Positions 2,116 to 43,985 of a DNA stretch of 64,000 nt are shown here, piece by piece. The notes beneath the pieces are model-generated. The model made no database searches and was not told the DNA's origin. It saw nothing but the letters and a program-made list of their open reading frames with translations. The DNA is from Dehalococcoidia bacterium (lineage in GTDB: Bacteria > Chloroflexota > Dehalococcoidia > Dehalococcoidales > W498). The stretch lies in assembly GCA_011191875.1 (NCBI GenBank), contig DUFC01000004.1, positions 6,345 through 70,344 on the forward strand, in the 5' to 3' direction. Position 1 is the first letter of the stretch. The number at the start of each line of letters is the position of its first letter. Position numbers and translations under genes: made by a program.

Positions 2116-2487
2116 TTAAAAAGGTATAGACTCGACCAATCGTTTAGTTTTAGTGATAACATTTTTAGCATCAACATATATCACTTTAGGTCTGAAGTGG
2201 CGGGCTTCGTCGTCCTCAACATGGCAGTAGGAGAGGATAAGTATAATATCCCTCTTATCTGCTAGTCTAGCCGCCGCTCCATTTATACAAATTTCACTGC
2301 TTTCGCCCTCAATGGCGTAGGTAGTAAAACGAGCACCATTATTGGTATTTAGCACCTGCACCTGCTCATAGGGCAGGATGTCAGCTTCATCCATAAGCCT
2401 CTTGTCAATGGTAATACTGCCTTCATAGTCAAGGGCAACCGTGGTAACTCGGGCTCTTTGGATTTTGCTCTTAAGCATTATTCTCAT
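2116..2487 (-). CDS. panD: Aspartate 1-decarboxylase
   Basis: 123 aa. [12 protein letters not shown]...[10 protein letters not shown] contains the Gly-Ser self-processing site, followed by TYAI and INGAAA. Confidence 0.92.
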
Positions 2488-3374
2488 TATACCTCCCTCA
2501 ATTGACCCTTTGTTTTGTCAGGTTGTTTTAGTATAGCCTCCAACTGGCGTGCCTGGTGCTGATTGATTTTGCCCTTGGCTAAAGCGATAGGTATAGTCTG
2601 AAGACCTAGTTCTCGATAGGTTGAGAGTAAACCAGGAGCTGTTTTCTTTAAAGCTTTGAGGTGCTTATTAATAGTACCGGTATCACCACGGGCAATCGGT
2701 CCAGTGAGACATTGAGGTATACCGACAGTATCAATATTATGAATTGTCCCTCGCAATAGCGGGAGTAGTGCCTGAGTAGCTTGGTTCGGTGGGATGTTGA
2801 AGGTTTGCCATAGGTCATTAGCTAGCTTGACCAAGGTTACCAAATAGTTACAGGCAATGACTGCTGCTGCATGATATACTACCTTATCGCTTGCTTTGAG
2901 CTCCACCCAGTGACCATCAAGGGCAGTTGCCATATCCTTAAGTGTATTTAATAGAGGCTCTTCAGCCTCCAAGGCAAAGGTTGAGCCTGGTATATTCTCT
3001 ATAGCCTGTTTTACACTGGCAAAGGTCTGCAAGGGGTGAAAGACACCAACCTGGACATCTGATTTCTTAGCTGGTTCCAGAGTTTCAGTTGAGTCAGCAC
3101 CACTACAATGAACTATACTCTGCCCGGCATGCCACTGAATTTCAGACACTACCGTGGCGATAGCATCATCGGGGGTAGTAATAAAGACAAGCTCACTATC
3201 ATCAGCCACATCCTGATTATTAGATGCACGGCAACCACCAATTACCTCAGCTAACTTTGCAGCTGAGGTTTGACTTCGACTCGATACGGCCACTACTTGA
3301 TAACCCTTACTGTTCAGCCCAACAGCTAGGGCAGTGCCTACAGTTCCAGCTCCGATGAATCCTAATTTGTGCAT
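2487..3374 (-). CDS. Rossmann-fold oxidoreductase, DUF2520-like (candidate ketopantoate reductase)
   Basis: 295 aa with an N-terminal [13 protein letters not shown] dinucleotide-binding motif. Its stop overlaps the panD start, and it is the first gene of the pan gene string. Confidence 0.6.
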
Positions 3375-3736
3375 TTTAGTTCCTTACTTACGCCTTTTTT
3401 ATATAAAATACCTTCTCAGACACAGCCAGAGAAGGCATTCAAGATACAGTCTTACATTTTGCCGTCCCGGTCATATCAGATCCAAGCGACTAATATTATT
3501 AATAATACCTATTTTTAAAAAGCTCACCGCCAACCGGTCGATGGCTAATAACTCACTATCATTTTGATTATATCCATTCCTTCTCAATCTTGTCAACACA
3601 GTGCAATAGAGGTATTTAGCTGGTGGGTGATAATCTATATTAGCCTCCTATTTGTCACCCGGCATTCTCATCTCATAACTTCGCTGGACGTTTTACCTTT
3701 AGCATATGCTGCCCTAAACACTAAGGTAATAACCTG

Positions 3737-7360: not shown

Positions 7361-8094
7361 TACACTCCGTAACTCAAACGTGACACTAACCCCATAGGCA
7401 GTCTATATTCCACCATCTTCGCTTGAGTAGCACCAATGTCATAAGTAATACGGTAGTGGGTAACAGACCTGGCTTCACTATCATAGACTGCGTAGCTGGC
7501 TCTAGGGTCACCATCCCGGGGTTGCCCTGCACCACCTGGATTAATAATAAATCGGTTCCTAGCCAGCGTAAGCACAGCATCATCCGGAAATTCACTAACC
7601 AAACAAGCACCATTTTCACTGCACTCAAATACTAAAGGTACATGAGAATGACCCACCAGGCAAAATTGCGATTGGAAGTAAGTAAAATTCTGCTTAGCAC
7701 GGCTGGTTGATAGAAGGTATTCCCAAATTGGATCCCTCGGGCTACCGTGAACTAGAGTAAAATCATCTCTTTGAGCAACCAGCGGCAAGCTGTCAAGATA
7801 CTGTATATCCCCTTGAGTTAATTGCTGCGCCGCCCAGTGACAGGCTGCAGCAGCATCAGGATTAAAATCGGAGGTATCTATTTTACCAATTGCTGCCCAA
7901 TCGTGATTTCCAGCAACACAGACATGCTTATACTGACACAGAAGCTCAATGCACTGGTGCGGGTCTGGTCCGTAGCCAACAATATCTCCTAAACACCAAA
8001 CCTCCTCCACCCCTCCCCTACGCTCAATGTCATCCAGCACTGCGGTAAAAGCAGCCAGATTGGCATGAATATCGGCAATAATTGCATAGTGCAT
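7360..8094 (-). CDS. Metallophosphoesterase family protein
   Basis: 244 aa. The motifs DIHAN, GDIVGYGP, GNHD and GHSH are calcineurin-like phosphoesterase motifs. Confidence 0.8.
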   Translation of the reverse strand: MHYAIIADIHANLAAFTAVLDDIERRGGVEEVWCLGDIVGYGPDPHQCIELLCQYKHVCVAGNHDWAAIGKIDTSDFNPDAAAACHWAAQQLTQGDIQYLDSLPLVAQRDDFTLVHGSPRDPIWEYLLSTSRAKQNFTYFQSQFCLVGHSHVPLVFECSENGACLVSEFPDDAVLTLARNRFIINPGGAGQPRDGDPRASYAVYDSEARSVTHYRITYDIGATQAKMVEYRLPMGLVSRLSYGV

Positions 8095-8153
8095 CTAAAA
8101 ACTATAACAGCTAATCCTGCACAAGTAAATATTTAGACCCTGCCTCAAATTCA

Positions 8154-8162
8154 TGCTATAAT
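8154..8162 (+). promoter_or_regulatory. Extended -10 element TGcTATAAT placed for a leaderless thiL transcript
   Basis: TGcTATAAT ends at 8162 and the thiL ATG starts at 8169, about 7 nt downstream at the expected transcription start. No SD is present. Confidence 0.4.
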
Positions 8163-8168
8163 TCCACT

Positions 8169-9155
8169 ATGAAAGTTTCGGAGATAGGGGAATTTGGGCT
8201 GATTGACCTCCTAGCTAAAACGGTTAATAGACCGCCGGGCAAACAGCTTATAATCGGTATTGGTGATGATGCTGCCGCCTGGTACGGTGATACCTCAATT
8301 CAACTGGCTACTGTTGATTCCTTTATCCAGGATGTCCACTTTTCCCTGGATATAGCTTCCTGGGAAGACCTGGGTTGGAAAGCAATGGCAGTCAACCTGA
8401 GCGACATTGCCGCTATGGGTGGTGTGCCCAGATACGCCCTGGTATCGTTAGCCATACCACCCCATACCGAAGTAGAGAATGTTATCGCCCTCTACAAAGG
8501 AATGATTGAGCTTACACAGCAGTTTGGAGTAACTATAATTGGTGGCGACACCAATAGTGCCACTCCGGTGGCCATTACCATTACCATTCTTGGTAGCACC
8601 AAAAAGGATAATTATATACTCACCCGCTCAACAGCTCAGCCTGGTGAGCAAGTGGCCGTTACCGGCTATCTAGGTGCAGCCGCTGCTGGTTTGGAAATAC
8701 TGACTAACCAACTTCAATTTGACACCGAAGCCACCGCTATTCTGAAAAAGGCTTTCCTTCACCCCTACCCCAGACTGACTGAAGGGCAACTGCTGGTAGA
8801 TTACGGAGTGAAAACAGCTATAGATATTAGCGATGGATTGATTTCAGACCTAAATCAAGTATGTAAATCAAGCCAAGTTGGTGCCAGAATAGAAATTGAC
8901 CGTGTGCCAATTCAGCCCACAGTTAAAGCTAACCTCAGCCAAAAATCCCTTGAACTGGCATTATCAGGAGGAGAGGACTATGAACTCTTGTTTACTGCCA
9001 GCGCTGAGGTTATTGATAAGGTAAAAAGAGCCGCCTCCTGCCCGATAACAGTAATCGGTGAAATCGTAGCTGATAAGAAGCTAACTCTGGTTAATAGCCA
9101 AGGGAATCCTTTTAAATTGGGTAAGACAGGTTGGGAGCACTTTGTTACGAGATGA
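8169..9155 (+). CDS. thiL: Thiamine-monophosphate kinase
   Basis: 328 aa. GEFGLID, GIGDDAA, AINLSDIAAMGG-type motif and GGD..  of the AIR-synthase-related ThiL family. Confidence 0.88.
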   Translation: MKVSEIGEFGLIDLLAKTVNRPPGKQLIIGIGDDAAAWYGDTSIQLATVDSFIQDVHFSLDIASWEDLGWKAMAVNLSDIAAMGGVPRYALVSLAIPPHTEVENVIALYKGMIELTQQFGVTIIGGDTNSATPVAITITILGSTKKDNYILTRSTAQPGEQVAVTGYLGAAAAGLEILTNQLQFDTEATAILKKAFLHPYPRLTEGQLLVDYGVKTAIDISDGLISDLNQVCKSSQVGARIEIDRVPIQPTVKANLSQKSLELALSGGEDYELLFTASAEVIDKVKRAASCPITVIGEIVADKKLTLVNSQGNPFKLGKTGWEHFVTR

Positions 9156-9631
9156 AGCTAAATCAGTCTATAAACTACGATTTAATCAGTCATAGCCCGG
9201 AACAGACCAAAATATTCGGGGGCAGTATCGGTGAGTTAGCCCTACCCGGTGATACTTTTCTCCTTGTCGGCGGCTTGGGAACAGGAAAGACCTGCCTCAC
9301 TCAGGGTATTGCCTTGGGACTGGGTATCAAAGAATATGCTGTCAGCCCCTCATTTGTCGTAGTTAGAGAACTCTATGGTAGGCTCCCCTTATATCACATT
9401 GACCTGTATCGGCTCAACCTAGAAGAAATTGTTGAATTAGGCTTAGATGACTATATATATGGCAATGGTGTCTGTGTAGTGGAATGGGCAGAAAAAGGGT
9501 TAAGCGTATTGCCAGCAGAGCACTTACTTATTGAAATAAGCTATCTTTCCGACATCGAGCGTAGCTTTCAACTTAAACCAAGTGGCAAACGCTACCTAGA
9601 AGTGACAGCCCAACTGAAATCTTCCCTTTAG
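9152..9631 (+). CDS. tsaE: tRNA t6A37 biosynthesis ATPase TsaE
   Basis: P-loop-like GGLGTGKTCLTQGI and YHIDLYRL. The start is set at an ATG that overlaps the thiL stop (ATGA). The ORF track gives a longer 9131 start. Confidence 0.85.
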   Translation: MKLNQSINYDLISHSPEQTKIFGGSIGELALPGDTFLLVGGLGTGKTCLTQGIALGLGIKEYAVSPSFVVVRELYGRLPLYHIDLYRLNLEEIVELGLDDYIYGNGVCVVEWAEKGLSVLPAEHLLIEISYLSDIERSFQLKPSGKRYLEVTAQLKSSL

Positions 9632-9643
9632 AAAGGACTACTA

Positions 9644-10348
9644 ATGCAGTTGGCTATAGATACTTCAACAGACATAGCTAGCCTGGCTCTGGTTCAAGAT
9701 GGCGAAGTGCTAGCTGAGTTAACCTGGCGTTGTGGACAAAGTCATACTACTCAGCTATTACCCCACCTGGCTCACCTGCTGGATAAGACTGAGAAATATC
9801 TTCAGTCTCTCAGTTGTATCATTGTAGCCAGGGGACCAGGAAGCTTTAATGGCTTGCGAGTGGGAATTAGCACAGCCAAGGGGCTAGCCTTTAGCCTGGG
9901 AATCCCAATAATTGGCATCAGCACCCTGGAAGCAGACGCCTACCAGCACGCCGAAACTGGTTTACCTATTTGCCCGATACTTAATGCCGGTAGAGAGGAA
10001 ATTGCTACCGCTTTATACCAAAAGAAACAAAATGCGTGGCATCAGCTTATCTGTGAGCATATAACTACTGTTGATACTTTGTGCTCACAGATTACCACAA
10101 AGACCATATTTTGTGGGGAACTCACCCCATTTATCGCCACAGGGCTAAGAAAACAGCTTAAGCAAAGAGCAATAATACCACATCCAGCTACTAGATTGCG
10201 GCGAGCCACTTTTCTGGCTGAGTTGGGGCAACAACGGTTTAAGATAGGCGACCATGACAACCCAGCTACTTTACAACCGCTATACCTCAGGCGACCACCA
10301 ATCACTAAACCCAAACACCGACAACAAATCAGGATAGAGGAAAACTAA
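9644..10348 (+). CDS. tsaB: tRNA t6A37 biosynthesis protein TsaB
   Basis: 234 aa. LAIDTST, GPGSFNGLRVGISTAKGLA. Confidence 0.85.
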   Translation: MQLAIDTSTDIASLALVQDGEVLAELTWRCGQSHTTQLLPHLAHLLDKTEKYLQSLSCIIVARGPGSFNGLRVGISTAKGLAFSLGIPIIGISTLEADAYQHAETGLPICPILNAGREEIATALYQKKQNAWHQLICEHITTVDTLCSQITTKTIFCGELTPFIATGLRKQLKQRAIIPHPATRLRRATFLAELGQQRFKIGDHDNPATLQPLYLRRPPITKPKHRQQIRIEEN

Positions 10349-21715: not shown

Positions 21716-22498
21716 CTACTCCTCTTCCTCTTCCTCTTCAGCCACTACATCCCTCTTCTCACCAATGTAAGGTAATAAAGCCTCTGCTTTTCCACCCTTG
21801 CGCCGTGAGGTGAAGGTTAATTTATCAATTATCTCGTGCAATTCCTTTAATTTCTCTTTAGTTTGCTCAACCCCTACTTTTATCATCACGCCCTCTACCC
21901 CTGTTTCCCACAGAGCCTGAAGTTCATCAGCCGTTACATTTGACGGCACGGAGACTACCAGGGGTTTTGTCAACAAATCAGCGAAGCGCTGAAAAAGCAT
22001 GAGGTGATGCCAGGTGAGAAAATACTCCCCGTCCTGTCCTCCATTAGTGAGTACCGCATCTACAGGTAACTCATTAACAGTTCTCAACAAGCCCTCACTA
22101 AGCGATGTCTCTACCTGTAAAATCTTACCCAGTTTAGTATCTTGAAGTAGTGCCAGCGAAGTGTTGGCTGGCGGAAAGACAATAAAATCGCAGCCAGCCT
22201 CTATTATCTGTTTGACCTCTCCCTGCCCAACATCTCTCAGCCAGCCACCCCAAGTAATATCAGGCACAACCTTACATATATTTTTAAGGGTCTTTGCTCC
22301 TTCACTCAAATTGGGAATGTGTAATAGCCCGGCATCAGCCCCAGCTACATAATCAGCTACCCCATCGACATTAGCCTCAGCTAAATCAGCAATAAGCAGT
22401 ATTCTTGGCTTCGGTGACACGTTTTGCATTGCCCTAAATCCCATAGCTTGAGGTACCGCCTGTGAAACCCGATTCAATTTATCTATAAGTCTGCTCAT
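21716..22498 (-). CDS. Hypothetical protein with alternating beta/alpha pattern and a poly-Glu tail
   Basis: 260 aa ending in AEEEEEEE. I recognise no motif. Confidence 0.55.
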   Translation of the reverse strand: MSRLIDKLNRVSQAVPQAMGFRAMQNVSPKPRILLIADLAEANVDGVADYVAGADAGLLHIPNLSEGAKTLKNICKVVPDITWGGWLRDVGQGEVKQIIEAGCDFIVFPPANTSLALLQDTKLGKILQVETSLSEGLLRTVNELPVDAVLTNGGQDGEYFLTWHHLMLFQRFADLLTKPLVVSVPSNVTADELQALWETGVEGVMIKVGVEQTKEKLKELHEIIDKLTFTSRRKGGKAEALLPYIGEKRDVVAEEEEEEE

Positions 22499-23104: not shown

Positions 23105-24472
23105 CTAAGGTTCTAACAGCCTATTTACCTGCTCAATCGCCTCGGCTACCACAAACAGCGACCCGGTTACACAGATGAGGTCACTCTCCCCGGCTAGAGC
23201 CAGAACTGAGGATACCGCCTGGTCAACATCTTCCACTACTTGCGTTTCAACTCCGTGCTTAGTAAATTCAGTAGCAACAGCTTCCGGTGTCATAGCCCGG
23301 GGATGGTGGGAACGGGTGGCAATAACCTTATCAAAAAGGGGAGCTAACTCGGAGACAATACCAGCTACATCCTTATCCCACGATGTCCCGATAACTAAAA
23401 TAGCCTGGGAGGCTTGTTTATTGAAGGAGCCTCGCCCCTCTAATCTAATAGACGACCCGAAGTATTGAACTAGTGACTCTTTCAGCCTCCGAGCTCCCTC
23501 AATATTCATGGCTCCATCAACCACTAGAAGAGGATGACGACTGAGAATCTGAAATCGACCGGGCCAGCTAACTTGCGCTAAACCATCAGTGATGTTATCC
23601 CTGGAAATATTAAAGCCACTTCTAGCCAAGACCTCCAGAGCCGCCACTGCAGTAGCAGCATTTTCTAACTGGTAGTAACCAAGAAGCGGAATAGATAATT
23701 CATAGTTACCCAATATTCCCCTTACCTGAAATAGCTGCCTATTTAAATCGAATCCAAGACTTTGCCAGATGACATCCCTACCTACCCTAACTAACCCCGC
23801 CCCACATTTAAGACAGGTTTCATCTATCACTTGAGCCACCTCATCAGGCTGGGGAGAGGTTACTACAACACTACCGAGCTTGATAATGCCAGCTTTCTCG
23901 GCTGCGATTTCAACCATGGAGTTACCTAATACCTCCATGTGGTCAAAGCTAATAGGGGTGATAATGCACACCTCAGGATTGATTACATTGGTGGCATCAA
24001 ACTTGCCCCCCATCCCTACCTCCAGCACCTGAAAATATACATTCTTTAGCTCAAAGTAGGCAAAGGCTAGTGTGGTTAGTAACTCAAAGGTAGTTAACTC
24101 GCCATAGTTGGCTTTCTGGTTTACCGCCTCAGCCTCAGGTTTCAGCTTCTCAACCAGAGCCACATACTCTTCCCTGGAGATTAGTTCTTTACCAATTCTC
24201 ATGCGCTCTCTCAAATCATTAAGGTGTGGTGAAGTATAAAGCCCGGTGATATAACCAGCGGCATTAAGCACTGAGGCTATCATAGCGGCTACACTTCCCT
24301 TGCCATTGGTACCGGTAATATGAACTGACCTAGCTCTTAATTGGGGATTACCTAACCGTGCCAGCAGTTCATCCACACGCCTCAGGTCATAATTGGCTGC
24401 CTCGTGTGGCATCGGCATCTTTTCATAGTCAGGATAGCTCAATATATAATCTAAAGCCTGCTGATAATTCAT
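23105..24472 (-). CDS. folC: Folylpolyglutamate synthase / dihydrofolate synthase
   Basis: 455 aa. HITGTNGKGSV P-loop, in the Mur-ligase family. Confidence 0.9.
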   Translation of the reverse strand: MNYQQALDYILSYPDYEKMPMPHEAANYDLRRVDELLARLGNPQLRARSVHITGTNGKGSVAAMIASVLNAAGYITGLYTSPHLNDLRERMRIGKELISREEYVALVEKLKPEAEAVNQKANYGELTTFELLTTLAFAYFELKNVYFQVLEVGMGGKFDATNVINPEVCIITPISFDHMEVLGNSMVEIAAEKAGIIKLGSVVVTSPQPDEVAQVIDETCLKCGAGLVRVGRDVIWQSLGFDLNRQLFQVRGILGNYELSIPLLGYYQLENAATAVAALEVLARSGFNISRDNITDGLAQVSWPGRFQILSRHPLLVVDGAMNIEGARRLKESLVQYFGSSIRLEGRGSFNKQASQAILVIGTSWDKDVAGIVSELAPLFDKVIATRSHHPRAMTPEAVATEFTKHGVETQVVEDVDQAVSSVLALAGESDLICVTGSLFVVAEAIEQVNRLLEP

Positions 24473-25100: not shown

Positions 25101-25178
25101 TCGTCATTATGATGGGCAGAGCCCCGAAGCAATCTCGGAGGAGGGGGGAGGATAAAAGAGGGGACGAAGCCACTCTCT
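25101..25178. repeat. Hairpin repeat family, copy R2 (degenerate)
   Basis: TCGTCATTATGATGGGCAGAGCCCCGAAGCAATCTCGGAGGAGGGG matches the family core. The right half has diverged. Confidence 0.65.
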
Positions 25179-25400: not shown

Positions 25401-25526
25401 AAAGCAACCTCCTGTAATGTTCCAACTTGTCATTGCGAGGGGCACAGCCCCGAAGCAATCTCAGAGGAGGGGGGCAGACGTGAGATTGCCACGCCCTTCC
25501 ACAGAAGTACTTACAATGACATTCCC
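25401..25526. repeat. Hairpin repeat family, copy R3a
   Basis: AACCTCCTGTAATGTTCCAACTTGTCATTGCGAGGGGCACAGCCCCGAAGCAATCTC...GAGATTGCCACG...CAATGACATTCCC. Confidence 0.85.
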
Positions 25527-25530
25527 TTTT

Positions 25531-25620
25531 CGTCATTGCGAGGGGCACAGCCCCGAAGCAATCTCGGAGGAGGGGGCAGGCGTGAGATTGCCACGTCCTT
25601 CTAACGAAGGACCTTCAATA
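25531..25620. repeat. Hairpin repeat family, copy R3b (tandem to R3a)
   Basis: TCGTCATTGCGAGGGGCACAGCCCCGAAGCAATCTCGGAGGAGGGGGCAGGCGTGAGATTGCCACG is nearly identical to the R3a core. Confidence 0.85.
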
Positions 25621-30175: not shown

Positions 30176-30799
30176 ATGAGAAAGGAAGTGGAAAAGAAAC
30201 TGAAATTAGTTGAAGAAACTACAGCTATGCTTATCGCAGATAGAATAGCCGGACTGGATAAAGAGGTGTTTTCAGAGAATCCAATAAAAAAGATAATCAT
30301 TCTTAGAATGCAACCGCCAAGTGAGGCAAAGCGAATAGCCTATATTCCTGAAGAGGAGGCAGTTTCAAATGAACCGGAGCATTATGTTATTCACAATTAC
30401 GGACTAAAAAAGATAATTGACCAGGAATGTCGAAAAAGAGTTATTTTGCTGAGTGAATCGGAAAGGAGTAAAGACTTCATTAAGATGACTTTGGAAGAAG
30501 TATTTATTGGAATTGCTGCCCATGAGGTAAGGCACCGAGTTCAGCACCTTCTTCCGATCGAGTGGTTTTCACCAGAACATGCCAGGACAATAGACGATCC
30601 TTATTTTAGGAGATTAATAGAATTTAGAAGGATTATTTTTACCTCCCATCCTCCTGAAGGAAATTACCAAAGGGAATTCGATGCTAAAGTAATTGAGAAT
30701 TTGGTAGTAGAAAAATGGCATTATGGAGAGAAAAGCCATTCGCGAATTGCCGAGCTTATTAAATTAGAACCAAAGCATTTAGCTAAGGCTGAGGAATAA
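30176..30799 (+). CDS. Hypothetical HExxH protein (putative zinc metallopeptidase)
   Basis: 207 aa containing IGIAAHEVRHRVQH. It lies inside the tRNA-Pro element remnant, and I recognise no other motif. Confidence 0.5.
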   Translation: MRKEVEKKLKLVEETTAMLIADRIAGLDKEVFSENPIKKIIILRMQPPSEAKRIAYIPEEEAVSNEPEHYVIHNYGLKKIIDQECRKRVILLSESERSKDFIKMTLEEVFIGIAAHEVRHRVQHLLPIEWFSPEHARTIDDPYFRRLIEFRRIIFTSHPPEGNYQREFDAKVIENLVVEKWHYGEKSHSRIAELIKLEPKHLAKAEE

Positions 30800-39706: not shown

Positions 39707-40768
<1,062 letters not shown>

Positions 40769-40799: not shown

Positions 40800-40829
40800 T
40801 TGACATTATCATATAGGTATGCTTAAAAT
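40800..40829 (+). promoter_or_regulatory. Sigma-70-type promoter for the tubulin-like gene
   Basis: TTGACA (40800-40805), an 18-nt spacer, then TAAAAT (40824-40829). The SD GAGGTGAG precedes the ATG at 40859. Confidence 0.45.
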
Positions 40830-40858
40830 AACAAAATTATTTAATACTGAGGTGAGAA

Positions 40859-42031
40859 ATGAAATTAGTGGTCATAGGTTTTGGACAATGCGGCAGTAGG
40901 ATTGCCGATGAGTTTGCCCGACTAAATAGAAGGGCGCGCAGCATGCGTGGGATTGAGATAATTACTGGTGATTTTGCTGTAAACACAGATGCTGCCGATT
41001 TAAGTGGGCTATCTTATATTAAACCTGATTACCAGCATAGAATCCTCATCGGAGGTCGAAGGACTGGTGGTCATGGCGTAGGTAAGATAAATGAACTGGG
41101 AGCCGAAATAGCTAGAGAAGACGGCGATAAGGTTATAGACGCTATAAGAACTGCCCCGCACTTCTTTGAGTCAGATGCCTTCTTACTAATTGCCGGTGCT
41201 GCTGGTGGTACTGGCTCAGGGGCAATACCAATAATGACGCAATACATAAAAGAGCGCTATATGGATAAACCGGTATATAATCTTATTATCCTCCCCTTTG
41301 AGCATGAAGAGACGACAGAGGAAAGAACTATCTATAACTCAGCTACATGTCTTAAATCTATAAATGCAGCGGCTGATGCAGTAATTCTTATTGACAATCA
41401 AAGGTATGTTAGGAAGGATTTCTCACTTAGAAACAACCTGGCTCAAATTAATGCTCTAATAGTTGAACCATTCTATAATCTACTTTGTGCTGGCGAGGAG
41501 AAAAAGCGCAAATATATCGGGGCAAGAATGCTTGATGCCGGAGACATTATGCAGACCCTGGTAGGATGGACAGTGATGGGCTACGGTAAATCACAAATTT
41601 CGTTATTTAATCTCCCCTTTAAAGGACGTAATTTCAGGGGGAAAAGCACCGAAACCCACAAGGGGATCCAGGCAATGGACGAAGCTATAAGTGAGCTATC
41701 ACTCAGATGCAACCCTGCAGATTCACACAGGGCGCTATATCTTCTCTCTGCCCCAGCCAAAGAAATGAATATGGACCTGGTCAAGGAACTTGGAGACTAT
41801 CTAAAAAGCATACTCCCAGAGGCCATAATAAGGAATGGTGATTACCCCAGGGAAAAAGGACTGATGGATGTAACTGTAATCCTGTCTGAACTTAGCGAAG
41901 TGGAAAAGGTCAGGAAATACTATAGTGAATCAACCACCTTTGTCCACGAGATTAAAGAGAGAGAAGAAGATATTGAGCGTAAAATTGGAGGAATAGACGA
42001 GGCATCAAAGGATTTACCCTCACTACTATAA
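40859..42031 (+). CDS. Tubulin/FtsZ-superfamily GTPase of CetZ/tubulin-like type
   Basis: 390 aa. The T1 loop is VVIGFGQCGSRIADEF and the T4 signature is AGAAGGTGSGA. NELGAEIA, ILIDNQ, LDAGDIMQTL (T7 region) and GDYP are also present. Confidence 0.75.
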   Translation: MKLVVIGFGQCGSRIADEFARLNRRARSMRGIEIITGDFAVNTDAADLSGLSYIKPDYQHRILIGGRRTGGHGVGKINELGAEIAREDGDKVIDAIRTAPHFFESDAFLLIAGAAGGTGSGAIPIMTQYIKERYMDKPVYNLIILPFEHEETTEERTIYNSATCLKSINAAADAVILIDNQRYVRKDFSLRNNLAQINALIVEPFYNLLCAGEEKKRKYIGARMLDAGDIMQTLVGWTVMGYGKSQISLFNLPFKGRNFRGKSTETHKGIQAMDEAISELSLRCNPADSHRALYLLSAPAKEMNMDLVKELGDYLKSILPEAIIRNGDYPREKGLMDVTVILSELSEVEKVRKYYSESTTFVHEIKEREEDIERKIGGIDEASKDLPSLL

Positions 42032-42051
42032 TCAATTAGCCAACTTTAATT

Positions 42052-42100
42052 GCCAGCTTTATATAGGTAGCTAAACTTAATAAAGCTGGCTTTTATTTAT
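42052..42100 (+). terminator. Rho-independent terminator after the tubulin-like gene
   Basis: A perfect 11-bp stem GCCAGCTTTAT / ATAAAGCTGGC with a 17-nt loop, followed by TTTTATTTAT. Confidence 0.8.
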
Positions 42101-42144: not shown

Positions 42145-42294
42145 AAAGTAACCTCCAATAATGTTCCATCTCGTCATTGCGAGGGGTAGAGCCCCGAAGC
42201 AATCTCGGAGGAGTGGGGAAGGCGTGGTATTGCCACATCCTTTATTCTTCACCAAAGGGTGAAGGACTGGCAATGGCATTCCCCTTAATGACGA
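42145..42294. repeat. Hairpin repeat family, copy R4
   Basis: AACCTCCAATAATGTTCCATCTCGTCATTGCGAGGGGTAGAGCCCCGAAGCAATCTCGGAGGAG...GGTATTGCCACA...CAATGGCATTCCCCTTAATGACGA. The arms TCGTCATT / AATGACGA pair. Confidence 0.85.
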
Positions 42295-42419: not shown

Positions 42420-43985
42420 ATGGCTCCTCAAGTCTTTTATCGTAAGTGGCGTCCCCAAACTCTAGCTGAGGTAGTTGGGCAGGAACAGGTAACACAAACA
42501 CTACGCAATGCCCTCACTAGTGGTCGTGTAGCTCATGCCTATCTTTTCTATGGTCCTCGGGGAACCGGTAAGACCACCACCGGGCGCATTTTAGCTAAGG
42601 CAGTGAATTGTGTTACCAACGGCAAGGGTGAGCCCTGTAATACCTGCCACATCTGCCAGGCAATAACTGAAGGTAGGGCTTTAGATGTCATAGAAATCGA
42701 TGCTGCCAGTAATCGGGGTATTGATGAAATCCGAGACCTCCGTGAGAGGGTCAATTATGCTCCAAACCAAGCTCGCTATAAGGTCTATATCATAGATGAA
42801 GTCCATATGCTTACCAAAGAAGCCTCCAATGCCCTGCTCAAGACCCTCGAGGAACCACCACCCCATATTATCTTCATTCTAGCCACCACCGAAGTCCATA
42901 AAGTCCTGCCCACAATTCTGTCACGATGCCAGCGCTTTGATTTCCGGCGCATCCCCCAGGCAGATATAGTTTCAAAACTAACCCATATTTGTAGTGCCGA
43001 AAACATTCACATAGACCCAGAGGGTCTACGGCTTATTGCTAAGTTCGCCACCGGTAGTCTGCGAGACGCCGAAAACCTGCTGGAGCAGTTGACCGCCTAC
43101 TATGACTCCGAAATTGAACTCCGTCAGGTTCAGGCTATGCTGGGCATCACCGGGGACTGGCGAGCTAAAGACCTGGTAAAACACATCATAAATAACGATA
43201 TTTCTGCCGGGATGACAACCATAAACAGTGTTAACAGCGACGGTCTGGATTTAAAGCAATTCAATCGGGAGCTGGTAGAATACCTTAGAGGACTTCTGCT
43301 GATAAAGACCGGCTCTGACGAAGCTTTAGACTTTACTATCGAGGAAATAGCTGAACTGAAGGATTTAGCCGCTAAAGCTTCTCTTCCTCAGATATTGAAG
43401 GCAGTCAAGCTCTTTGGTCAGCTTGAGCTTGGTTTTGATAACTACTCTACCTTACCTCTTGAGTTAGCCCTAGTTGACTGTGTCCTGCCTGTTGAGGAGG
43501 AAAAGGAAGGCGCTACCACACAAACTGAATATGAATTTCGCCAGCCGGTAGAAGTGGCTCCTCCACCAGCCACTCCAACTGAACCCGAGCCGGTTAATGT
43601 GCTCACCCCACCAGCACCAGAGGTCGCCACTACTATAACCCCACCACAACCAGGTAGTGAAATTGAACAACTGAGACTAAACTGGAAGCGGGTTATTGAT
43701 GAAGCCCCAGCCAGCACTAAAAAAACCTATGCCATCGCTATTCTTAGAAGTGCTGGCGTCAAACCAGTAGCATTTGAAGACGATACCGTAGTCTTATCCT
43801 TCAGATATAACATTCATAAGGATAATATGGAGAAACCGGAAAATCAACGTGTTGCCGAAGAAATTATAGGTAACTTCCTAGGACGTCCCTGCCATGTGCG
43901 CTATGTTTACCAACCAGAAGATAATCACCTAGTGAATGCAGCCTTAAAAATGGGTGCTCAAATTATTGATGTGGAGGAGAAATGA
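42420..43985 (+). CDS. dnaX: DNA polymerase III subunit gamma/tau
   Basis: 521 aa. Walker A GPRGTGKTT, the Zn module C..C..C, DEVHML, SRC and a Pro-rich linker. Confidence 0.95.
   Translation: MAPQVFYRKWRPQTLAEVVGQEQVTQTLRNALTSGRVAHAYLFYGPRGTGKTTTGRILAKAVNCVTNGKGEPCNTCHICQAITEGRALDVIEIDAASNRGIDEIRDLRERVNYAPNQARYKVYIIDEVHMLTKEASNALLKTLEEPPPHIIFILATTEVHKVLPTILSRCQRFDFRRIPQADIVSKLTHICSAENIHIDPEGLRLIAKFATGSLRDAENLLEQLTAYYDSEIELRQVQAMLGITGDWRAKDLVKHIINNDISAGMTTINSVNSDGLDLKQFNRELVEYLRGLLLIKTGSDEALDFTIEEIAELKDLAAKASLPQILKAVKLFGQLELGFDNYSTLPLELALVDCVLPVEEEKEGATTQTEYEFRQPVEVAPPPATPTEPEPVNVLTPPAPEVATTITPPQPGSEIEQLRLNWKRVIDEAPASTKKTYAIAILRSAGVKPVAFEDDTVVLSFRYNIHKDNMEKPENQRVAEEIIGNFLGRPCHVRYVYQPEDNHLVNAALKMGAQIIDVEEK

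Follow-up and report, generated by a model that had tools for sequence, protein, structure and literature searches.

A CetZ-like tubulin-superfamily GTPase at a conserved chromosomal locus in Dehalococcoidia

Introduction

CetZ1 and CetZ2 of the archaeon Haloferax volcanii (structures 4B46 and 4B45) combine an N-terminal Tubulin domain with a C-terminal CetZ_C domain, and CetZ is called archaea-specific (PMC9856176, PMC11621097). Santana-Molina et al. 2023 did list "Chloroflexota-Dehalococcoidia" among CetZ-like groups, which one sentence of that paper terms "sparse" and "paraphyletic" and whose C-termini match the CetZ_C hidden Markov model at about 1e-10 (PMC9871819); we found no other report linking CetZ with Dehalococcoidia in the literature that we searched. 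Here we describe a cetZ-like gene in a 64-kb stretch of DNA from a Dehalococcoidia bacterium (contig DUFC01000004.1; the whole stretch is referred to below as the window), compare its product with CetZ and FtsZ, and follow its relatives across the class. The initial annotation of the window treated a CetZ-like protein in a bacterium as unexpected, a view that the earlier listing overturns: the existence of the clade has already been published and annotated, and the gain here is one of depth, not discovery. What is new is the scale and synteny of the clade, its FtsZ-like tail, the paralogue pairs that enclose coiled-coil genes, and an occasional linkage to ftsZ.

The biology of the hosts makes such a protein worth attention. 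Dehalococcoidales and SAR202 have lost their peptidoglycan genes while keeping mraZ-mraW-ftsA-ftsZ, and have an S-layer-like wall (PMC10608941). Kruse et al. 2021 reported that Dehalococcoides mccartyi BTF08 makes an "FtsZ/Tubulin GTPase" (btf_0551) besides FtsZ (btf_0595); pure cultures, whose cells are discs, are rich in both of these and in a hypothetical protein encoded nearby (btf_0548), whereas in co-culture, where the cells become barrels, all three are scarce or undetected (PMC8163811). The gene bears on how Dehalococcoides and its relatives, important in bioremediation and abundant both in sediments and in the ocean, stay disc-shaped and undergo division in the absence of a wall.

A CetZ-type protein in a bacterial chromosome

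The cetZ-like gene encodes a protein of 390 amino acids (aa) that begins MKLVVIGFGQCGSRIADEF and carries the tubulin-superfamily T4 signature AGAAGGTGSGA, as the initial annotation had it; a six-frame scan of the whole window found no second tubulin-type signature. The protein is identical to an NCBI entry already named "cell division protein FtsZ." In Pfam searches it exceeded the gathering cut-offs for Tubulin (PF00091; 113.7 bits against 33) and CetZ_C (PF21011; 50.8 bits against 21.6) and gave no match to FtsZ_C (PF12327), a domain that the true FtsZ of the same lineage matches at 8.2e-30. It also failed the NCBIfam FtsZ equivalog model TIGR00065 (67.5 bits; cut-off, 295.2). Among PDB sequences searched with phmmer, the best match was H. 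volcanii CetZ1 (4b46; 1.6e-42, residues 1 to 369), followed by CetZ2 (4b45; 5.7e-27) and the Methanosaeta protein 3zid (3.1e-14, residues 3 to 212), with bacterial FtsZ at about 1e-9 to 1e-11 and aligned over the N-terminal domain only.

Fold comparison gave the same ranking. An AlphaFold2 model built from 51 clade sequences reached a predicted local distance difference test (pLDDT) score of 85.5 and a predicted template-modelling (pTM) score of 0.86; a Foldseek search with this model placed CetZ1 4b46 at the top (E 3.7e-30), then CetZ2 4b45 and 3zid (4.8e-24), with FtsZ structures lower (about 1e-21). Likewise, when a profile of the clade was aligned with hhalign, the E value was 7.7e-71 (363 columns) for an archaeal CetZ profile and 1.4e-11 for an FtsZ profile. 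The gene product, with its Tubulin plus CetZ_C architecture, is thus a CetZ in the broad sense and not an FtsZ, as initially proposed; paralogues in relatives also exceed the CetZ_C cut-off. It lies outside the canonical archaeal definition, a clade bounded by Thermococcales CetZ, because it belongs to a separate clade and has a bacterial host.

Beyond domain architecture, the protein shares with CetZ1 a full-length structural alignment (TM-score of 0.90 normalized to the target, root-mean-square deviation of 2.9 Å), an acidic T7 residue at the position of CetZ1 E218, and a short hydrophobic tail that follows a long helix (LPSLL here, LESLF in CetZ1). The CetZ1 motifs that the initial annotation had listed, namely NELGAEIA (NELGAE), PVYxLxILP, the DN of ILIDN, the T7 region and GDYP, aligned in both the phmmer and the profile-profile alignments, with DAGDIMQTL of the window protein opposite DSSEIINTL of CetZ1; survival of these correspondences in a profile alignment had been set beforehand as the check on them. 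CetZ1 and CetZ2 further resemble the present system in forming paralogue families within single genomes and in having hosts with an S-layer and without peptidoglycan. They differ in their archaeal hosts, in an identity of only about 29 to 33%, and in several details: the T1 loop reads GQAGG in these proteins and GQCG here, T4 reads GGGTGSG there and AGGTGSG here, the M-loop here, though longer than in CetZ2 or FtsZ, is much shorter than in CetZ1, and the positively charged residues R276, K277 and R282 of the CetZ1 lateral interface are D, E and E here. In addition, the tail here carries a D-(I/L)-P motif typical of FtsZ tails.

The T1 loop needs a qualification. GQCG had been described as characteristic of tubulins and archaeal CetZ and as distinct from the glycine run of FtsZ; it is present and is not the FtsZ form, but neither is it the canonical CetZ form, since CetZ1, CetZ2 and most archaeal representatives have GQAGG. 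GQCG is the form found in β- and γ-tubulin. A GQCG-type T1 loop and a CetZ-like fold also occur in the noncanonical archaeal "CetZ" of Methanosaeta thermophila (3ZID), whose sequence similarity to the window protein is limited to the N-terminal domain and is much weaker than that of CetZ1. Bacterial FtsZ, including that of Dehalococcoidales (for example, locus L009, positions 8686 to 9816), shares the superfamily fold, the logic of GTP binding and T7, and a C-terminal motif, D-(I/V/L)-P-S-(F/L)-L; it differs in having FtsZ_C, a GGGG T1 loop and a long disordered linker, which the model here lacks, and in most genomes the cetZ-like gene lies away from the mraZ-rsmH-ftsA-ftsZ cluster.

Relationship to archaeal CetZ

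We built a neighbor-joining tree of 103 sequences and 373 columns (100 bootstraps), with four Dehalococcoidales FtsZ proteins and E. coli FtsZ as the outgroup. All CetZ_C proteins split from FtsZ at 100% bootstrap. The clade of the window protein, supported at 83%, contains all Dehalococcoidales copies together with more distant subfamilies, 35 to 55% identical to each other, and its members are Chloroflexota (class Dehalococcoidia) wherever the source names the organism. The archaeal side, with CetZ1 and CetZ2, received only 43%, so the tree does not separate a sister from a nested placement. Judged from these sequences, the clade appears to be the closest relative of archaeal CetZ, outside their canonical clade, and it is almost certainly the Dehalococcoidia CetZ-like group of Santana-Molina et al. 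(PMC9871819): both are from Dehalococcoidia, both lie outside canonical CetZ, and both match CetZ_C (at 1.7e-13 here). In contrast to the "sparse" and "paraphyletic" groups of that paper, however, the clade seen here is abundant (>7,500 clusters and 200 stretches) and monophyletic at 83% in the neighbor-joining tree, and it is also syntenic and has a conserved tail. A bacterial sister group of CetZ type that is large, conserved and found in lineages without peptidoglycan sits uneasily with a family still described as archaea-specific, and adds a data point on the timing of the CetZ-FtsZ split and on a possible crossing between domains.

Catalytic residues, tail and selection

Residues expected to serve GTP binding and hydrolysis are conserved. 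Across 51 clade members, G7, G9, Q10, G12 and G116 to G121 are invariant, as are D226, A227 and D229 of the T7 loop. MAFFT aligned D226 and D229 with E. coli FtsZ D209 and D212, and D229 with CetZ1 E218, the equivalent position whose mutation blocks GTPase-dependent turnover.

The extreme C-terminus reads K-D-(I/L)-P-S-L-L in 238 of 240 distinct orthologues, and more distant subfamilies retain a tail of the form (D/E/x)-(I/L)-P-x-L-(L/F); a D-I-x-(S/P)-L-(F/L) ending is shared by many archaeal CetZ representatives. The initial annotation had stated that a C-terminal peptide of the type that binds FtsA or ZipA is lacking, which proved incorrect: the protein ends in KDLPSLL, and MAFFT lays this tail on the C-terminal peptides LDVPSFLRK of Dehalococcoidales FtsZ (L009) and LDIPAFLRK of E. 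coli FtsZ. The tail resembles, in sequence only, the FtsZ peptide (D/E)-(I/V)-P-x-(F/Y)-L, which binds FtsA, ZipA or SepF. Rod formation depends on the archaeal counterpart, the CetZ1 tail LESLF (bioRxiv 10.1101/2024.04.08.588506).

The ratio of nonsynonymous to synonymous substitution rates against seven orthologues was 0.13 to 0.17 (about 0.15); the gene is under strong purifying selection. Eight contigs from different metagenome samples encode the identical protein, and those that include flanks show the same context.

Distribution, synteny and paralogues

Scanning one genome per GTDB species yielded 200 stretches that encode a relative; the locus counts given here cover the best 80, which are 68 to 89% identical to the window protein. 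All of these are metagenome-assembled genomes (MAGs) labeled Dehalococcoidia, Dehalococcoidales or Dehalococcoidaceae, except for three labeled "Deltaproteobacteria bacterium"; one of the 80 (L037) is a closed 1.03-Mb chromosome. The three exceptions (L012, L015 and L033; JAUVYB01, JAUWGI01 and JABMRW01) show eno-gap-cetZ-dnaX synteny and 72 to 73% identity, and their labels or bins are probably wrong. A protein search returned >7,500 related clusters, the best 120 of which are at least 78% identical, come from Dehalococcoidia or Dehalococcoidales MAGs, and are named "cell division protein FtsZ," "tubulin/FtsZ family protein" or "Tubulin-like protein CetZ."

The gene adjoins gap and/or dnaX in 69 of the 80 loci, within the order eno-gap-cetZ-dnaX-ybaB-recR. 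The window and the relatives closest to it have a single copy (15 loci in which both flanks can be seen), and 42 loci have two or three. Most multicopy loci (36 of 42) have two paralogues 2.3 to 3.7 kb apart, between which lies, on the opposite strand, a gene for an Ala/Glu-rich coiled-coil protein of 460 to 910 aa; 33 of these 36 also hold a conserved gene for a coiled-coil protein of about 170 aa, whose C-terminus, AW..R(D/E)ETIEQAWQIYSK, is invariant and for which a profile search gave 32 matches. Neither coiled-coil protein matched any Pfam family. Both are candidate partners of CetZ-like filaments. The window belongs to the single-copy type, and tblastn together with a composition scan detected no coiled-coil genes of this kind in it. 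An obligate heterodimer of the two paralogues, resembling α/β-tubulin, is unsupported, because both copies retain the catalytic T7 acid; β-tubulin lacks that acid in the α/β heterodimer.

Four genomes carry an extra paralogue beside a reduced division cluster. Two have the order mraZ-rsmH-ftsA-ftsZ-cetZ-like-nrdR (L009, 5811 to 11986; L032, 3906 to 9988), and in the other two the cetZ-like gene is convergent with ftsA-ftsZ (L055, 549 to 6170; L064, 359 to 4309). Because these genomes place the paralogue next to ftsA-ftsZ, canonical FtsZ and the CetZ-like protein coexist, in agreement with the reported retention of ftsA-ftsZ (PMC10608941). In the neighbor-joining tree, the ftsZ-adjacent copy of L009 and the copy at gap-dnaX in the same MAG (L020) form a pair, which suggests that the former is a recent duplicate.

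A second subfamily (P0147 type; L082 to L088) comprises proteins of 418 to 422 aa with CetZ_C, a GQGGS T1 loop and a tail ending in LPNL or LPDL; a profile search found it in marine and other Chloroflexi/Dehalococcoidia MAGs, on contigs of up to 4.4 Mb. This subfamily's gene is always followed by a gene without a Pfam match (for example, 8001 to 9257 and 9322 to 10272 in L086), whose product begins with a transmembrane helix, continues through a linker rich in Pro and Ala and ends in a conserved domain; this product could be a membrane partner. Another distant representative (P0141) also lies in a bacterial context, with FtsH and MacB.

Proposed function and alternatives

We favor, with a probability of about 0.6, a functional, vertically inherited CetZ-like GTPase that forms a tail-docked filament acting in the shape and/or division of peptidoglycan-less cells. 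GTP would be bound via the T1 (GQCG) and T4 (AGGTGSG) loops; subunits would polymerize head to tail, with the T7 loop (D226/D229) of one completing the GTPase site of the next; and the tail, KD(I/L)PSLL, borne on a long helix, would dock the filament to a membrane partner, for which the candidates are FtsA, some other adaptor able to read FtsZ-type tails, and an adjacent subunit (as proposed for CetZ1). Such filaments would act in envelope morphogenesis (shape and/or division) of S-layer-bounded cells lacking peptidoglycan, beside the retained FtsA-FtsZ. What the data establish is the family and fold, the conservation of catalytic residues and tail, purifying selection, the fixed gene order with its conserved promoter, and the spread among relatives. 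A link to shape and division is drawn from the paralogues beside ftsA-ftsZ, from the loss of peptidoglycan genes with retention of ftsA-ftsZ (PMC10608941), from the occurrence of the P0147 type in other Chloroflexota, and from the behavior of btf_0551 in D. mccartyi (PMC8163811). Polymerization, tail-mediated tethering and the cellular role are what we infer; a role in shape or the envelope seems somewhat more likely than a purely accessory role in division.

Several points weigh against this interpretation. The activity of clade members is predicted from sequence and a model. A115 (codon 41201 to 41203) occupies the first glycine position of the GGGTG(S/T)G signature and aligns with E. coli FtsZ G105 and CetZ1 G108, where substitution by Ser inactivates both proteins (G105S and G108S); Ala is nearly invariant here in the clade, and the PROSITE tubulin signature, [SAG]GGTG[SA]G, allows it. 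The tail lies at the end of a predicted helix, whereas that of FtsZ follows a long disordered linker; its partner may thus be a neighboring subunit, as has been suggested for CetZ1, rather than an adaptor. The D. mccartyi protein btf_0551 is a probable, not an established, orthologue of the window protein. The usual locus, among glycolysis and replication genes, is silent on function, and ftsZ is adjacent in only 4 of the 80 loci. Finally, the tree is of the neighbor-joining type only, and its outgroup lacks archaeal FtsZ and tubulins.

Could the protein be an accessory or second division protein and not a shape determinant, one that co-assembles with or regulates the FtsA-FtsZ ring, as archaeal FtsZ2 does with FtsZ1, and competes for or shares the receptor of the FtsZ tail? 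The similarity of KD(I/L)PSLL to LDVPSFL, the tail of the lineage's own FtsZ, would fit, as would the paralogues beside ftsA-ftsZ, which occur in four genomes and in two different arrangements, and the covarying abundance of the FtsZ/Tubulin GTPase and FtsZ in D. mccartyi BTF08. We nevertheless consider this unlikely, though worth keeping in mind, because gap-dnaX, not the division cluster, is where the gene lies ancestrally and almost universally, because the ftsZ-adjacent copy of L009 groups with L020 as a recent duplicate would, and because archaeal CetZ proteins act in shape and motility; according to a 2015 study by Duggin et al., archaeal CetZ is reportedly not required for division. That the gene was acquired recently from an archaeon, or is a contaminant introduced during binning or assembly, is very improbable. 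The closest characterized relatives are archaeal, and several genes otherwise confined to archaea are known in Dehalococcoides (PMC1852104), but synteny, composition and independent recovery lead us to reject it: the flanks are the same in 69 of 80 species-level genomes, including the closed chromosome; the clade is internally diversified into several subfamilies; the GC content of the gene (43.1%, against 45.7% for the window) shows no compositional anomaly, and the promoter is conserved and of bacterial type; and the identical gene recurs in the same context in independent metagenomes. The gene appears to be vertically inherited and is a typical member of a widespread, old clade, not an oddity of one genome. 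Inter-domain transfer, which the initial annotation had raised, is accordingly not a feature of this genome, and any such transfer must be ancient because the bacterial clade is deep; as an alternative to vertical descent, an ancient transfer is possible.

A tubulin of the DNA segregation or mobile element kind (TubZ/PhuZ), or a eukaryote-like one of the BtubA/B type, deserves practically no weight. A weak match to Tubulin_2 (PF13809; E 0.001) might be taken to point that way, but at 18.8 bits it falls under the cut-off of 27, and γ-tubulin and BtubA/B appear only far down the PDB list (1e-5 to 1e-7), over a short stretch. The Pfam thresholds, the fold ranking and the chromosomal housekeeping context, in which no plasmid, phage or partition genes were found nearby, led us to reject TubZ/PhuZ; the unmatched Tubulin_C in the Pfam search, the absence of any tubulin from the Foldseek top 50 and the weak PDB scores do the same for a true tubulin, and the catalytic T7 acid is retained in each of the two tandem paralogues of relatives.

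Returning to the shape-and-division filament that we favor, a more ambitious version can be put forward only tentatively, at clearly less than even odds: wall-less Dehalococcoidia (Dehalococcoidales and SAR202-type) might possess a CetZ cytoskeleton of archaeal style, acquired or kept at about the time peptidoglycan was lost, with an FtsZ-type tail read by FtsA and, in many species, two coiled-coil partners encoded between the CetZ paralogues, that sets the disc shape. If true, this would be the first bacterial cell shape system based on a CetZ-type polymer. Experimental handles are the invariant FtsZ-like tail, the conserved catalytic residues and the paralogue pairs with their coiled-coil genes; a further one is a cultured species with a probable orthologue that tracks a change in morphology (PMC8163811).

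Locus features and neighboring genes

Features of the gene and its surroundings are collected in Table 1. A promoter, Shine-Dalgarno sequence and 11-bp-stem terminator of its own, wedged between gap and dnaX in a housekeeping block, had been proposed for the gene; all of these elements are present, and Pfam confirmed the position. The promoter-like site fits the consensus at 11 of 12 positions. In the 10 orthologous loci compared, the −35 (TTGACAT) and −10 elements are invariant or nearly so and the Shine-Dalgarno sequence is kept as (C/T)GAGGTG, while the remainder of the 90-nucleotide (nt) spacer drifts; such selective conservation supports the predicted dedicated promoter. The terminator hairpin has a folding energy of −21.4 kcal/mol (z = −3.8; none of 200 shuffles was as stable). 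Its long loop caused a pattern scan to miss it; folding confirmed the hairpin, and an inverted repeat was also detected there. Within the AlphaFold2 model, the only low-confidence segment is residues 252 to 260 of the M-loop-like insertion, and pLDDT drops from about 85 to about 57 to 67 along the C-terminal helix.

Table 1. Positions of the cetZ-like gene, its signals, protein features and flanks in the 64-kb Dehalococcoidia window (gene on the + strand); the last two rows use the coordinates of locus L018
Feature	Position	Strand	Basis or remark
Promoter-like site, −35 TTGACA (40800-40805), 18-nt spacer, −10 TAAAAT (40824-40829)	40800-40829	+	
Shine-Dalgarno GAGGTG, 4 nt ahead of ATG	40849-40854	+	Read from sequence
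Coding sequence, CetZ-like tubulin-superfamily GTPase, stop codon included	40859-42031	+	Open reading frame (ORF), 390 aa
N-terminal GTP-binding domain, residues 3-182	40865-41404	+	Pfam Tubulin PF00091, E 1.7e-32
T1 loop GQCG, residues 8-11	40880-40891	+	Within PF00091 domain
T4 signature AGGTGSG, residues 115-121	41201-41221	+	Within PF00091 domain
C-terminal domain, CetZ type, residues 189-354	41423-41920	+	Pfam CetZ_C PF21011, E 1.7e-13
T7 (synergy) loop LDAGD, residues 225-229	41531-41545	+	Presumed catalytic acids D226 and D229
M-loop-like insertion SQISLFNLPFKGRNFRG, about residues 246-262			Inside CetZ_C domain
Long C-terminal helix, residues 349-383, carrying the tail	41903-42007	+	DSSP on AlphaFold2 model
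Conserved C-terminal tail peptide KDLPSLL, residues 384-390	42008-42028	+	
Intrinsic-terminator-like hairpin, 11-bp stem (42052-42062/42080-42090), then CTTTTATTT	42052-42099	+	
gap	39755-40768		5' flank of cetZ-like gene
dnaX	42420-43985		3' flank of cetZ-like gene
Coiled-coil gene, example locus L018	6992-7516	−	
Coiled-coil gene, example locus L018	7576-9759	−	

By Pfam, the upstream neighbors are ligA, pth, a gene for an SLOG protein, eno and gap, and the downstream neighbors are dnaX, ybaB, recR, a gene for an aldehyde:ferredoxin oxidoreductase, and recO. Elsewhere the window carries a routine set of bacterial housekeeping genes, among them ftsH, metG, lysS, serS, uvrB, ftsK and the gene for RNase J. 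The Dehalococcoidia-like bacterial host that had been inferred is borne out by the closest relatives, and the flanks (dnaX, recR, NAD-dependent ligA, ftsH and ftsK) are likewise bacterial.

Elsewhere in the window, an ORF of the Mur ligase family (Mur_ligase_M plus Mur_ligase_C; 23105 to 24472, − strand) occurs in a lineage reported to be without peptidoglycan synthesis; it probably encodes a putative FolC-type enzyme rather than a cell wall ligase. Two ORFs (21716 to 22498, − strand, 259 aa; 30176 to 30799, + strand, 207 aa) matched nothing in Pfam at E ≤ 1e-5. Four intergenic sites in the window (42174 to 42206, 25104 to 25136, 25430 to 25462 and 25533 to 25565) carry a dispersed repeat, TCATTGCGAGGGG(C/T)A(C/G)AGCCCCGAAGCAATCTC, that includes a short GC-rich hairpin and of which no copy is expected by chance; the first of these sites lies between the cetZ-like terminator and dnaX. 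Lastly, the Rfam pan motif (RF01749; 43.7 bits) is found at 3458 to 3546 (− strand), just upstream of a DUF2520/F420_oxidored ORF (2487 to 3374, − strand) and panB (1267 to 2103, − strand), its expected pantothenate operon setting.

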